A DNA stretch of 26,313 nt from IMG/VR virus record IMGVR_UViG_2687453108_000014. One strand, written 5' to 3'. Of the stretch, positions 20,340 through 23,990 are shown piece after piece. The notes beneath the pieces are model-generated. The model ran no database searches, had not been told where the DNA came from, and was given only the letters and a program-made list of their open reading frames with translations. Both the position numbers and the translations under genes were made by a program. Source of the stretch: a virus (taxonomy: Duplodnaviria > Heunggongvirae > Uroviricota > Caudoviricetes). Position 1 is the first letter of the stretch. Each line of letters starts with the position of its first letter.

Positions 20340-20632
20340 GCCCCTACATCAAAACCACTGATGAATTCGTTATCCATATCAAAACCAAAAAATTTAGAGC
20401 CTTCCGATGGAGTTTCCACCGAAGGTGTTTCAATGCCCCCCGCCCATACCCCGGCGGCTTTTACTGTTAGATACCCCTGTTTAATTGCCGCAATTAACTC
20501 ACGCGATACATCTGAAATATCAGTATCAGGAAAGACCCAGACCGATATCGTCATGTCCTGGTTATCGATGTTGGCGATCCGACGCATCTGCTCACGGTCA
20601 AAGTTAACCATCTGTGCGGCGATGTTTTTCAT
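20321..20632 (-). pseudogene. Deletion fusion: lambda P codons 1-21 joined to the 3' end of a tail/baseplate gene
   Basis: First 21 residues (MKNIAAQMVNFDREQMRRIAN) match lambda P; downstream sequence is unrelated and ends overlapping the stf start, as the last gene before a tail fibre would. Confidence 0.65.
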
Positions 20633-21528
20633 AAATCCACCCCGTAAATCCAGTCAGTGTTTGTCAGGTCGAGTTTTGGTTTGCTGGCTGTCACGCCTGC
20701 CTGTTGCTTGTTACGGTTGATTTCGAGCTGGGTCCACTTGTCGCGGAGTTTGGCCGGACTCAGCACGTTACCGGACCAGAAGTTGTCCTGGCAGGCCCAG
20801 CGGAAAAGCACACACATATCGCGGTGGTTACGTCCGTCACGTTCACGCATCAGGCGGATATCGTTAGCCCACCCAGCAAAATTCGGTTTTCTGGCTGATG
20901 GCGCGATGGTCTTCACCATGTCAAACATCCACTCTGCGGCGGTCAGGTCTTCTGCTGTTCCCCACTTGCTGCCGCTCTGAATTGCAGCATCCGGTTTAAC
21001 CACAGAAAGATCGTTTTCTGGCTGGTCAGAGGATTCGCCAGAATTCTCGGACGAATAATCTTTTCTTTTTTCTTTTGTAATAGTGTCTTTTGTGTCCCCC
21101 TGTTTTGAGGGATAGCAATCCCCCAATTTGAGGGATGTTTTATCCCTCGTTTTAGGGGATTTTCCCTCGTTTTGAGGGATACACCATTCTGAGATGTTTT
21201 TATTTGGTCCAAACATGCCGCCTTGCTGCTTGATAATATTCATTCTGACGAGTTCTAACTTGGCTTCATTGCACCGTTTGACAGGTAACTTTGTAATCTC
21301 GCTAAGTTGAGAATCGGTGATTCTGTCCATTGGTTTATTCCACCCATAGGTTTTACGCAGAATGGCAAGCAGCACTTTAAACTGTCGCTTGGTCAGATCT
21401 GCGCCCGAATAAGCCTCAAGCAGCATATTTGATAGTCTGGCGTAACCATCATCGAGATCTGCCACATTACGCTCCTGTCCGGCAAAGTTACCTCTGCCGA
21501 AGTTGAGTATTTTTGCTGTATTTGTCAT
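20629..21528 (-). CDS. O: Lambda-type replication initiator O
   Basis: 299 aa, matches what I recall of lambda O; contains the ori iterons. Confidence 0.93.
   Translation of the reverse strand: MTNTAKILNFGRGNFAGQERNVADLDDGYARLSNMLLEAYSGADLTKRQFKVLLAILRKTYGWNKPMDRITDSQLSEITKLPVKRCNEAKLELVRMNIIKQQGGMFGPNKNISEWCIPQNEGKSPKTRDKTSLKLGDCYPSKQGDTKDTITKEKRKDYSSENSGESSDQPENDLSVVKPDAAIQSGSKWGTAEDLTAAEWMFDMVKTIAPSARKPNFAGWANDIRLMRERDGRNHRDMCVLFRWACQDNFWSGNVLSPAKLRDKWTQLEINRNKQQAGVTASKPKLDLTNTDWIYGVDL
21060..21185. repeat. ori-lambda: four ~19-bp iterons plus adjacent AT-rich region inside O
   Basis: Repeated ...CCCTC(A/G)AAA(C/T)(G/A)AGGGA... units at about 21096-21183, with a T-rich tract at 21060-21095. 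Confidence 0.8.
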
Positions 21529-21560
21529 AATGACTCCTGTTGATAGATCCAGTAATGACC

Positions 21561-21854
21561 TCAGAACTCCATCTGGATTTGTTCAGAACGCTCGGTTGCC
21601 GCCGGGCGTTTTTTATTGGTGAGAATCGCAGCAACTTGTCGCGCCAATCGAGCCATGTCGTCGTCAACGACCCCCCATTCAAGAACAGCAAGCAGCATTG
21701 AGAACTTTGGAATCCAGTCTCTCTTCCACCTGCTGATCTGCGACTTATCAACTCCCACAGCTTCCGCTGTCTTCTCAGTTCCAAGCATTGCGATTTTGTT
21801 AAGCAACGCACTCTCGATTCGTAGAGCCTCGTTGCGTTTGTTTGCACGAACCAT
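21561..21854 (-). CDS. cII: Lambda cII transcriptional activator
   Basis: 97 aa from MVRANKRNEALRIESALLNKIAMLGTEKTAEAVGVDKSQISRWKRDWIPKF...; the ORF track's longer N-terminal extension is discarded. Confidence 0.93.
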   Translation of the reverse strand: MVRANKRNEALRIESALLNKIAMLGTEKTAEAVGVDKSQISRWKRDWIPKFSMLLAVLEWGVVDDDMARLARQVAAILTNKKRPAATERSEQIQMEF

Positions 21855-21972
21855 ATGTAAGTATTTCCTTAGATAACAATTGATTGAATGTATGCAAATA
21901 AATGCATACACCATAGGTGTGGTTTAATTGGATGCCCTTTTTCAGGGCTGGAATGTGTAAGAGCGGGGTTAT

Positions 21973-22173
21973 TTATGCTGTTGTTTTTTTGTTACTCGGG
22001 AAGGGCTTTACCTCTTCCGCATAAACGCTTCCATCAGCGTTTATAGTTAAAAAAATCTTTCGGCCTGCATGAATGGCCTTGTTGATCGCGCTTTGATATA
22101 CGCCGAGATCTTTAGCTGTCTTGGTTTGCCCAAAGCGCATTGCATAATCTTTCAGGGTTATGCGTTGTTCCAT
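21973..22173 (-). CDS. cro: Lambda Cro repressor
   Basis: 66 aa, [66 protein letters not shown]. Confidence 0.95.
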
Positions 22174-22195
22174 ACAACCTCCTTAGTACATGCAA

Positions 22196-22266
22196 CCATT
22201 ATCACCGCCAGAGGTAAAGCAGTCAACACGCGCGGTGTTAGATATTTATCCCTTGCGGTGATAGAT
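22196..22266. promoter_or_regulatory. OR1-OR2-OR3 with divergent PR and PRM promoters
   Basis: OR1 TATCACCGCCAGAGGTA (22200-22216), OR2 CAACACGCGCGGTGTTA (22224-22240), OR3 TATCCCTTGCGGTGATA (22247-22263); OR2 differs from my recalled lambda sequence by one central base. Confidence 0.85.
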
Positions 22267-22273
22267 TTAACGT

Positions 22274-22987
22274 ATGAGCGCAAAAAAGAAACCATTAACA
22301 CAAGAGCAGCTTGAGGACGCACGTCGCCTTAAAGCTATTTATGAAAAAAAGAAAAATGAACTTGGCTTATCCCAGGAATCTGTCGCAGACAAGATGGGGA
22401 TGGGGCAGTCAGGCGTTGGTGCTTTATTTAATGGCATCAATGCATTAAATGCTTATAACGCCGCATTGCTTGCAAAAATTCTCAACGTTAGCGTTGAAGA
22501 ATTTAGCCCTTCAATCGCCAGAGAAATCTACGAGATGTATGAAGCGGTTAGTATGCAGCCGTCACTTAGAAGTGAGTATGAGTACCCTGTTTTTTCTCAT
22601 GTTCAGGCCGGGATGTTCTCGCCTGAGCTTAGAACCTTTACCAAAGGCGATGCGGAGAAATGGGTAAGCACAACCAAAAAAGCCAGTGGCTCTGCATTCT
22701 GGCTTGAGGTTGAAGGTAATTCCATGACCGCACCAACAGGATCCAAGCCCAGCTTTCCTGACGGGATGTTAATTCTGGTTGACCCTGAGCAGGCTGTTGA
22801 GCCAGGCGATTTCTGTATAGCCAGACTTGGTGGTGATGAGTTTACCTTCAAGAAACTGATCAGGGATAGCGGTCAGGTGTTTCTACAGCCACTAAACCCA
22901 CAATACCCAATGATCCCATGCAATGAGAGTTGTTCCGTTGTGGGGAAAGTTATCGCTAGTCAGTGGCCTGAAGAGACGTTTGGGTGA
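22274..22987 (+). CDS. cI: Lambda-type cI repressor, intact
   Basis: 237 aa, near-identical to recalled lambda cI with a few substitutions (e.g. MSAKKKP for MSTKKKP); the C-terminal autocleavage domain is present. Confidence 0.95.
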
Positions 22988-23114
22988 TAGGAAGTAAGTT
23001 TTATGTTGACGGCACAGTCAACTTGGCATAGATTAATTAAACCAAGCCCAGCCCCGTTCGCAGACAATTGTTAATATCTGCATAACGGCTCTGGGCTATT
23101 TTTTTGGGACTCTT

Positions 23115-23573
23115 ATGAAGAAAGCAGCAATTTTAATTGATGCGGGTTTTTTCATGCAGCGTGTTCATGCTACGCATCGTAAACACTTCGCCGAGCATGA
23201 ACTGACTGCGCAATGCATAATGAAAGTAATATGGTCAATGGTTCTTTCCCATCTTAATGGAAAACGTCAATCACAAGAACGTAGGGAACCGCTTGAGCTT
23301 TATAGAATTTACTTCTATGACTGTCCACCACTCGACATTCAAACACGCCTTCCACTTCCTGAGCCTGGCAATAAGACGCCTGGTCGCAAGAATTTCAAAC
23401 TCGAAAAATCATATATTCTGAGAACGGAGCTGCATGAAGAGTTAAGAAAAACTCGAAAAACAGCCAATTGTATTTATTTTAAAATTAATAGGTGCAACTC
23501 ACTAAACAACGCAATTCTGATCTCTCGATCACCTCCCAAGCCACACAACCCTGCAAAAAATAAATCTATATAA
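23115..23573 (+). CDS. Hypothetical protein in the slot lambda uses for rexA/rexB; N-terminus NYN/PIN-like
   Basis: ORF between cI and OL, co-directional with cI; begins MKKAAILIDAGFF...; the 3' end runs into lambda-like sequence upstream of OL3, so it may be a truncated remnant. Confidence 0.4.
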   Translation: MKKAAILIDAGFFMQRVHATHRKHFAEHELTAQCIMKVIWSMVLSHLNGKRQSQERREPLELYRIYFYDCPPLDIQTRLPLPEPGNKTPGRKNFKLEKSYILRTELHEELRKTRKTANCIYFKINRCNSLNNAILISRSPPKPHNPAKNKSI

Positions 23574-23587
23574 AAAACATACAGATA

Positions 23588-23650
23588 ACCATCTGCGGTG
23601 ATAAATTATCTCTGGCGGTGTTGACACAAATACCACTAGCGGTGATACTA
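23588..23650 (+). promoter_or_regulatory. OL3-OL2-OL1 operators with PL promoter
   Basis: OL3 23588-23604, OL2 23607-23623, OL1 23631-23647 (TACCACTAGCGGTGATA); -35 TTGACA at 23621-23626 and -10 GATACT at 23644-23649. Confidence 0.85.
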
Positions 23651-23688
23651 AGCACATCAGCAGGACGCACTAACCACCATGAAGGTGA

Positions 23689-23719
23689 TGCTCTTAAAAA
23701 TTAAGCCCTGAAGAAGGGC
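23689..23719 (+). promoter_or_regulatory. nutL (boxA variant plus boxB hairpin)
   Basis: boxB GCCCTGAAGAAGGGC at 23705-23719; upstream boxA-like tgctcttaaaaatta appears to carry one substitution relative to recalled lambda. Confidence 0.7.
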
Positions 23720-23876
23720 AGCATTCAAAGCAGAAGGCTTTGGTGTGTGTGATACGAAACGAAGCATTGGCCGGAAGTGCGAATCCGGATTAGCAGCCAA
23801 TGTGCCATTGCGGGGTGTTTTCGTTCAGGACTACGACTCCCACACACAACCAAAGCTAACTAACAGGAGAATCCAG

Positions 23877-23990
23877 ATGGATGCACAAACACGCCGCCGC
23901 GAACGTCGCGCAGAGAAACAGGCTCAATGGAAAGCAGATCGGATTCTGGCTTCAACATTTCGCAGGAATGCAACTAAGAGACATTACTGA
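23877..23990 (+). pseudogene. N: Truncated antiterminator N (codons 1-20) running out of frame into integrase sequence
   Basis: [20 protein letters not shown] matches lambda N; from about 23938 the sequence is integrase-derived and the N frame ends after 17 unrelated codons. Confidence 0.85.

Follow-up and report, generated by a model that had tools for sequence, protein, structure and literature searches.

A lambda-like immunity and replication island of Escherichia coli O157:H7 as the probable core of the defective thrW prophage Sp1/CP-933H

The DNA considered here (the window, 26,313 nucleotides in all) is the IMG/VR virus record IMGVR_UViG_2687453108_000014, whose annotated region carries in order a P4-like element, the insertion sequence (IS) IS629, an AraC-family regulator, a GIY-YIG protein, the invertase gene pinE, tail-fibre and assembly genes, a lambda-like block, a truncated integrase gene, the tRNA gene thrW and proA. 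The lambda-like block was delimited by megablast to 20569-23937 (positions 1570-4938 of a query consisting of window 19000-25500, the extent of all hits to lambda-like phages) and is 97.2% identical to phage lambda. Among complete Escherichia coli genomes the same query found a full-length match of 100% in the O157:H7 strain JEONG-1266 and matches of 99.4-99.8% in many other O157:H7 strains. In the record of strain Sakai, 300042-310627 bears the annotation “prophage Sp1, lambda-like phage” and “prophage Sp2, P4-like phage” comes next, and the genes of Sp1 are arranged there as in the window, namely an intD pseudogene, an N stub, CI, Cro, CII, O, a P pseudogene, tail fibre, pinE and a regulator. 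The thrW site, the gene order, two characteristic junctions (N with the integrase, P with a baseplate gene) and the neighbour Sp2 are all the same in Sakai, and the two sequences align base for base across the junction regions compared. Sp1 has been equated in the literature with CP-933H (O-island 8) of strain EDL933. We put at roughly 0.93 the probability that the lambda-like island forms the regulatory and replication core of the defective lambdoid prophage Sp1 of Sakai, that is CP-933H of EDL933, lying at thrW in tandem with the P4-like Sp2. The element between its att repeats measures 11.9 kb, and the thrW repeat that bounds it (Table 1) is the counterpart of a 46-bp attP core in the annotation of phage SfI.

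Sp1/CP-933H is a known element that was annotated in 2001, dissected in silico, functionally profiled in 2009 and tested experimentally, and its regulator PatE has already been studied. What is gained here is that both deletion junctions are mapped to the base, the mosaic parentage is identified, and a misleading label of the NCBI Prokaryotic Genome Annotation Pipeline (PGAP) is corrected.

The immunity region has the layout of lambda throughout. The repressor cI differs from that of lambda by T3A, K71N, R129K and D139G (numbered from the initiator Met), none of which falls in the helix-turn-helix or at the Ala-Gly cleavage site, and it possesses the helix-turn-helix, the Ala-Gly self-cleavage site, the Ser/Lys peptidase domain and the specificity that define a LexA-like repressor of the lambda immunity type. 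A single cI protein accession is annotated in JEONG-1266, TR01, PA20, DEC4E and 214-4. All six 17-bp operators align with lambda, in tripartite right and left operators (OR and OL) with divergent promoters PR and PRM, promoter PL, and cro just after PR. In a scan of 19500-25000 for sigma-70 promoters PR and PL came out on top, each scoring 10 of 12. OR1, OR3, OL2 and OL3 are identical to lambda, while OR2 differs at its central base (T to C) and the OR2-OR1 spacer has two changed bases, adjacent to each other, just after the -35 element of PR. These three substitutions are absent from lambda, phage ev099, SfI and strain 214-4, and the exact 81-bp sequence of the PR spacer and OR2 region was found in only 51 genomes. 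OL1 and boxA of nutL each have one change relative to lambda, and both changes are common to the viable phage ev099. A terminator-like hairpin lies at 21585-21612 on the + strand, at the oop terminator, and an Rfam search of the lambda-like island gave no match other than the tRNA.

Operator and promoter bases also vary among O157 strains, and strain-specific substitutions cluster in regulatory DNA; DEC4E, for example, carries a change in OL2 and a PL -10 element altered from GATACT to GATACC. Such clustering could be drift or promoter-down tuning.

The replication genes are kept in part. O, the four O-binding iterons within it and the AT-rich region beside them, the last again identical to lambda, are all present and intact in the window. 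In Sakai (923 nt), PA20 and DEC4E this set is broken, O being a frameshifted pseudogene owing to a 23-bp tandem duplication (iteron 3 plus spacer) that raises the iterons to five. The frameshifted O of these three strains speaks against the replicon being under selection. Within O157:H7 the iteron number of ori is thus polymorphic, four in some strains and five in others. The helicase loader P, which a lambda replicon also needs, is a stub even in the window: it starts at 20632 on the minus strand and keeps 21 of 233 codons.

Two fusions mark the ends of the island. At the first (junction 1, 23936/23937), N passes into int. The annotated 133-codon N open reading frame (ORF) of lambda begins further upstream, and the 20-residue N sequence that the window stub follows begins at 23877. 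With the slash marking the break, the N parent reads ...CAATGGAAAGCAG/CAAATCC, the integrase parent (SfIV) ...GACAAAAGCCG/GATCGGATTC, and the window ...CAATGGAAAGCAGATCGGATTC. Perfect microhomology amounts to 1 base at most, inside an imperfect AAAGCNG similarity, and the parental BLAST matches overlap by 7 imperfect bases. Past the junction the DNA is 99.5% identical to the integrase of SfIV and phi458 and 98.8-99.0% identical to that of SfI, SfV and SfII. The match begins at codon 83 of the 387-codon SfIV gene, with residues 1-82 gone, a stretch that, to judge from lambda Int, probably holds the arm-binding domain. The catalytic domain remains whole, as Pfam Phage_integrase fully covers residues 121-292 of the truncated protein. 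Its ORF opens with an ATG at 23881, four bases after the ATG of N and close behind the N ribosome-binding site, and is annotated in Sakai as the pseudogene intD/ECs_0271. Excision by a full-length tyrosine integrase and an excisionase is thus not provided for, since Int is truncated and xis absent, although the att repeats are present. Likewise both nut sites are present, but N-dependent antitermination also calls for a full N protein, with its boxB-binding motif and its NusA-binding and polymerase-binding regions, and N here has only residues 1-20 before the frame shifts.

At the second fusion (junction 2, 20569/20570) P passes into a baseplate gene. The P parent reads ...CGGATCGCCAACA/ACATGCC, the window ...CGGATCGCCAACATCGATAACCAGGAC, and the closest donor, the myovirus vB_EcoM-611R5, ...GCAGATAGTCGATAACCAGGAC; the parental BLAST matches do not overlap here. 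The last 82 residues of the resulting fusion ORF are 98.8% identical (tblastn) to the C-terminus of a protein of vB_EcoM-611R5/683R1 that is encoded just upstream of the side tail-fibre gene and is annotated as DUF2612 in related phages and E. coli genomes. PGAP labels 20321-20581 as “phage replication protein, missing N-terminus”, a label which we reject, as tblastn and Pfam show a DUF2612 baseplate C-terminus; it has probably spread from the fused ORF of O157.

A sequence-only reading of this DNA had placed a lambda-like island at 20570-23940, with cI, cro, cII, O, the ori iterons, OR1-3, OL1-3/PL and nutL all present and near-identical to lambda, N leaving lambda after codon 20 (about 23938) for integrase sequence, and P leaving it after codon 21 (about 20570) for a tail gene. 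The megablast boundaries coincide almost exactly with those coordinates, protein and DNA alignments agree on the gene content, and the lambda-like codons number exactly 20 in N and exactly 21 in P; beyond them stand the SfIV-type int and the end of the DUF2612 gene, with tail-fibre genes next. That reading was right as to the junction of N with integrase sequence but missed that Int itself lacks its first 82 codons and is not merely orphaned.

We searched with probes of 201 bp centred on each junction. Neither junction was found in any of 50,697 phage records at a probe coverage of at least 80%, the matches there ending at the break whichever flank they come from, so that the circumstance named beforehand as fatal to the deletion account, junctions native to an intact phage, was looked for there and did not turn up. 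Among 5,426 complete E. coli genomes, junction 1 is present in 215 and junction 2 in 204, and in the remaining genomes each junction half sits in an intact N, integrase, P or DUF2612 gene.

Table 1. Features of the window and the evidence for each (positions are those of the 26,313-nucleotide window; Sp1 is the prophage of strain Sakai)
Feature	Position	Strand	Evidence or remark
Distal Sp1 att repeat (47 bp, duplicating the 3′ part of thrW)	13011-13057		Exact direct repeat of 24869-24915; Sp1/Sp2 boundary
IS629 (IS1203 family), 1310 bp, GAG target duplication	13505-14814	+	PGAP, IS ends; ALIL frameshift pseudoknot (Rfam)
AraC-family regulator PatE (z0321/ECs_0287), cargo	15125-15868	-	Pfam HTH_AraC, HTH_18
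LEM-3-like GIY-YIG domain protein, cargo	16641-17465	+	Pfam PF22945; PGAP
pinE, intact serine DNA invertase	17523-18077	-	Pfam Resolvase and HTH_7; PGAP
Invertible tail-fibre segment: alternative tail-fibre C-termini and assembly genes	18139-19989		20-bp inverted repeats 18139-18158 and 19970-19989
Constant N-terminal part of tail-fibre gene, ATG 20321	19990-20321	-	ECs_0280 in Sakai
Fusion ORF, 103 residues: P codons 1-21 in frame with last 82 codons of DUF2612 baseplate gene	20321-20632	-	Translation, alignment, tblastn, weak Pfam DUF2612 match
Replication initiator O, intact in the window strain	20629-21528	-	299/299 identical to lambda O
ori, four O-binding iterons within O	21096-21180	-	Identical to lambda 39034-39118
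cII, oop terminator on opposite strand	21561-21854	-	97/97 identical to lambda CII
nutR (boxA, boxB)	21934-21965	-	Identical to lambda in three-way alignment
cro	21973-22173	-	66/66 identical to lambda Cro
OR1 22200-22216, OR2 22224-22240, OR3 22247-22263, with PR and PRM	22200-22263		Alignment to lambda, ev099, SfI and strain 214-4
cI repressor, intact, 237 residues	22274-22987	+	233/237 to lambda cI; 237/237 to ev099 cI
5′ remnant of NYN-domain gene, in rexAB position, ending at junction 3 (23465/23466)	23115-23465	+	Alignment to ev099
OL3 23587-23603, OL2 23607-23623, OL1 23631-23647, with PL (-35 23621-23626, -10 23644-23649)	23587-23649	+	Alignments
nutL (boxA 23689-23696, boxB 23705-23719)	23689-23719	+	boxB identical to lambda
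N remnant: 20 native codons (arginine-rich boxB-binding motif), then 16 out-of-frame codons and stop	23877-23987	+	Alignment to lambda
Truncated integrase ORF, 324 residues: 19 foreign residues from the N +1 frame, then Int residues 83-387	23881-24855	+	Translation, DNA identity to SfIV int, Pfam
tRNA-Thr (CGU) thrW, integration site; att core repeat 24869-24915	24870-24945	-	ARAGORN, Rfam, repeat search

A third lesion lies within the island at junction 3, where 576 bp present in ev099 and strain 214-4 have been lost, comprising the 3′ half of the NYN gene (Pfam recognizes the NYN domain in the ev099 counterpart protein) and a hairpin with T-run that corresponds to lambda tImm, and no terminator-like site remains on the cI strand between cI and int. 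Because tImm is lost, cI transcripts may run on via OL/PL into the truncated integrase. TR01 and many other O157 strains carry IS629 at this very place, with flanks ...ACAGCCATAA-IS-TAACCAATTG, whereas the IS-free alleles read ...ACAG/CCAATTG in the window, ...ACA/CCAATTG in Sakai (one base fewer than in the window) and ...AAAGG/CAATTG in DEC4E, corresponding to losses of 576, 577 and 159 bp. The right end is common to all of them at the IS629 site while the left ends differ. A simple deletion of 576 bp with IS629 later inserted into the junction was considered and rejected, as the TR01 flanks keep extra parental bases. These bases, which have no counterpart in the IS-free alleles, indicate that the IS-free alleles derive from the IS-bearing one. 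The simplest account would be an insertion of IS629 and then several separate excisions, each losing flanking DNA at short microhomologies. Such a history agrees with the published activity of the O157 IS-excision enhancer, a polymerase with microhomology-mediated end joining (PMC9943667). The proposal that two precise deletions left the island consequently needs amending: both main junctions stand, but there are at least three deletions, the third being the IS629 footprint that took tImm.

The nearest relative of the island is ev099 (Radostvirus), with 99.1% DNA identity, an identical cI and the same variants of OL1 and boxA. Both ev099 and ev099-like prophages such as that of strain 214-4 have an NYN-domain gene in place of rexAB, and AraC and IS-remnant cargo next to att. 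Since the window holds the 5′ part of this NYN gene, rexAB was never present. In contrast to the window, ev099 is a siphovirus with nothing missing: it integrates at the lambda att site by lambda int/xis, its N and P are of full length, and both the NYN gene and the terminator are intact. The likeness to lambda itself extends to cI (98%), to Cro, CII and O (100%), to the identical iterons and to the common layout of OR, OL, PR, PL, PRM, nutL and nutR, with four base changes in operators and nut sites besides the two in the OR2-OR1 spacer; however, the element is without rexA, rexB, tImm, cIII, xis, Q and the late genes, and its integrase and att are unrelated to those of lambda.

For the integrase, the relatives are SfI, SfIV, SfV, SfII and coliphage phi458, which are 99-99.5% identical from codon 83 and share the thrW att core. 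All of these phages are intact, however, and have xis, a complete early-left operon, gtr genes for O-antigen modification and another tail-fibre region. SfI in addition has a lambda-type cI, cro, cII, O and P together with the rexAB that the window lacks, which shows that an intact phage can combine such an integrase with lambda immunity. Some 5 kb of early-left genes lie in SfI between int and N, and the whole late region lies between P and the tail fibres. Myoviruses of the SEN34/611R5 type, finally, have the same order of baseplate (DUF2612), tail fibre, tfa and invertase. Descent from lambda itself, as the sequence-only reading had it, is not borne out, the immunity region being nearer ev099, the integrase of SfI/SfIV type and the tail module that of a myovirus. 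Because ev099-type immunity, an SfI/SfIV-type integrase and att, a myovirus tail order and an AraC region shared with ev099 are combined at this locus, the ancestor would have been a mosaic lambdoid temperate phage, probably endowed with ev099-type immunity and O/P replication, a thrW integrase of the SfI/SfIV type, a myovirus tail whose fibre Pin could invert, and AraC (PatE) cargo.

From such an ancestor, the present element would have arisen through three lesions. One illegitimate deletion would have joined N codon 20 to int codon 83, at the cost of cIII, xis, the recombination genes and what followed in N; another would have joined P codon 21 to the last 82 baseplate codons, taking ren, nin, Q, the lysis, terminase and head genes and most tail genes; and an IS629 that inserted and was later excised together with flanking DNA would have taken the 3′ half of the NYN gene and tImm. 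As judged from sequence, the element retains intact cI, PRM/OR, cro, cII, O, ori, OL/PL and both nut sites, its N, P and Int are truncated, and it has no Xis, Q, lysis or head gene.

The predicted behaviour of such a remnant is simple. Transcribed from PRM, cI would keep PR and PL shut and should repress an incoming phage with lambda operators (homoimmunity), so that superinfection immunity to lambda-type phages is a plausible and reasonable expectation by analogy with lambda. SOS-activated RecA would provoke self-cleavage of cI and open both promoters, upon which PR would transcribe cro, cII, O, the P-DUF2612 fusion and the tail-fibre remnants, and PL the N stub and truncated int. Nothing further should follow, as no helicase loader, antiterminator, excision function or late gene is left. 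A Cro-locked anti-immune state is classical in N-defective, replication-defective lambda lysogens. A comparable Cro-dominated state after induction is conceivable here, since cro is intact and no lethal functions remain.

Experiments on the O157 reference strains agree with this outline. Sp1 of Sakai was scored as positive for repressor and antirepressor (Cro), defective (D) for integration and replication, and negative for excision and all else; it gave no circular form, amplification or packaged DNA, and its early genes were induced by mitomycin C (PMC2669165). The tail-fibre genes Z0314 and Z0316 of CP-933H in EDL933 are among the genes most induced under antibiotic (PMC4048457), which is what read-through from PR across the P-baseplate fusion predicts. 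The earlier statement that the element can no longer replicate or excise is upheld both by the truncated P and Int with xis absent and by the work on Sakai (PMC2669165).

Several points weigh against the account given so far. No single sequenced phage has all of the parental modules, so that the ancestor drawn above would be a composite. No intermediate was found from which to reconstruct in what order, and by what mechanism, the two large deletions took place. Induction by mitomycin C was measured in Sakai, whose Sp1 has a frameshifted O, the other fibre orientation and no IS629 of its own. The three substitutions at PR and OR2 are specific to the window lineage and may alter repression. As for immunity, a literature search found no plating test of Sp1-conferred immunity to lambda-immunity phages in O157, where the O antigen may block adsorption of such phages anyway.

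Beyond decay, one can ask whether the cI-cro switch has been domesticated, being kept by selection for protection against lambda-immunity phages (of ev099-like or SfI-like kind, for example), for SOS or bistable control of Pin and PatE, or because loss of cI would be harmful in unleashing cII and O; we regard this as unlikely, though less so than the readings that follow. The protein accessions of cI, cro and cII are the same in every O157 strain examined while their neighbours vary (O, NYN, IS629), the cI protein is identical to that of the viable phage ev099, and the early genes are still SOS-inducible. Yet O157:H7 is a very young clone, in which sequence identity says almost nothing on selection, and the operator and promoter regions vary between strains, which drift fits at least as well as tuning. 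No phenotype is reported in the literature, and PatE lies beyond an oppositely oriented gene, so that read-through that far without N is doubtful. In a bolder version, the remnant would act as a heritable, SOS-triggered immune/anti-immune toggle of susceptibility to lambda-immunity phages, with cI, OR, cro and cII kept while every lethal function was removed. With tImm lost and a new ATG lying four bases beyond the start of N, the truncated Int could be made and might hinder other phages that integrate at thrW, and the changes in PR, OR2, OL2 and the PL -10 element would be tuning; this we hold to be less likely still.

That the element is instead native and small, a satellite or phage-inducible chromosomal island with a lambda-type repressor and replicon that depends on a helper, is highly improbable. 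It is indeed compact, has an integrase-family ORF next to a tRNA gene as well as a repressor and an origin, and adjoins a genuine satellite in Sp2. But both junctions cut genes mid-codon and leave stubs of N, P, int and the baseplate gene, which mark deletions; they are confined to one clone; there are no packaging-redirection, capsid-size or capsid-remodelling genes and no excisionase; the integrase is without its 82 N-terminal residues; and circularisation, replication and packaging were all negative experimentally (PMC2669165). We rejected a satellite on these grounds. An assembly chimera or a laboratory lambda construct (a recombineering or expression prophage), which the near-identity to lambda and the clean, engineered-looking truncations of N and P might bring to mind, can practically be dismissed, since more than 200 complete genomes of wild isolates (cattle, humans, food), each sequenced independently and the Sakai reference of 2001 among them, have these very junctions, the closest relative is the wild phage ev099 and not laboratory lambda, and a cI857 construct in particular is rejected by that distribution and by the Ala at position 66 of cI.

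The defective prophage Sp1/CP-933H, as we prefer to read the locus, differs between the window and Sakai in the iterons and O (four and intact against five and frameshifted), in the orientation of the Pin segment, in the single base at the IS629 footprint, and in the IS629 at 13505-14814, which Sakai lacks. Taken together, the IS629 footprint sizes, the four or five iterons, the flipping tail-fibre segment and the operator substitutions illustrate how fast a silent remnant changes in a young clone, and strain-to-strain differences of this kind in Sp1 could serve as typing markers. In kind, the element resembles the cryptic lambdoid prophages Rac, DLP12, Qin and e14 of K-12, in that these too are remnants left by deletion at integration sites, with a repressor and scattered cargo; their immunity types and sites differ. 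The e14 element likewise keeps a Pin invertase with an invertible tail-fibre segment.

In the remaining part of Sp1, the order of the tail-fibre genes is that of the myovirus vB_EcoM-611R5. The 1.8-kb tail-fibre segment is inverted relative to Sakai with both flanks identical, which indicates that the Pin invertase has been active within the clone; the “frameshifted” tail-fibre calls of PGAP may partly reflect the orientation of this segment. The LEM-3-like GIY-YIG gene sits between pinE and PatE; it is conserved as ECs_0285 in Sakai, and vB_EcoM-611R5 has a gene of about its size beside the invertase. According to the literature, PatE belongs to CP-933H (O-island 8), activates acid resistance and represses the locus of enterocyte effacement. 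PatE and the adjacent IS remnant also lie, at 99% DNA identity, in the b-region of the viable phages ev099, mEp332 and PhiR70_1, which shows a route into O157. The IS629 copy at 13505-14814 was inserted into an older, partial IS3-family remnant near the end of Sp1 and is absent from Sp1 of Sakai.

The neighbouring Sp2 (about 130-13010) is a P4-like satellite with a primase-helicase, Icd-like, Psu and Ogr/Delta proteins, an integrase, and the C4 antisense RNA and isrK recognized by Rfam. Its low-GC cargo at about 8400-11700 is annotated as encoding ABC-three-component-system proteins and an AAA ATPase, which probably form an anti-phage defence system, and a degenerate copy of the thrW/att arm lies near 115-145.

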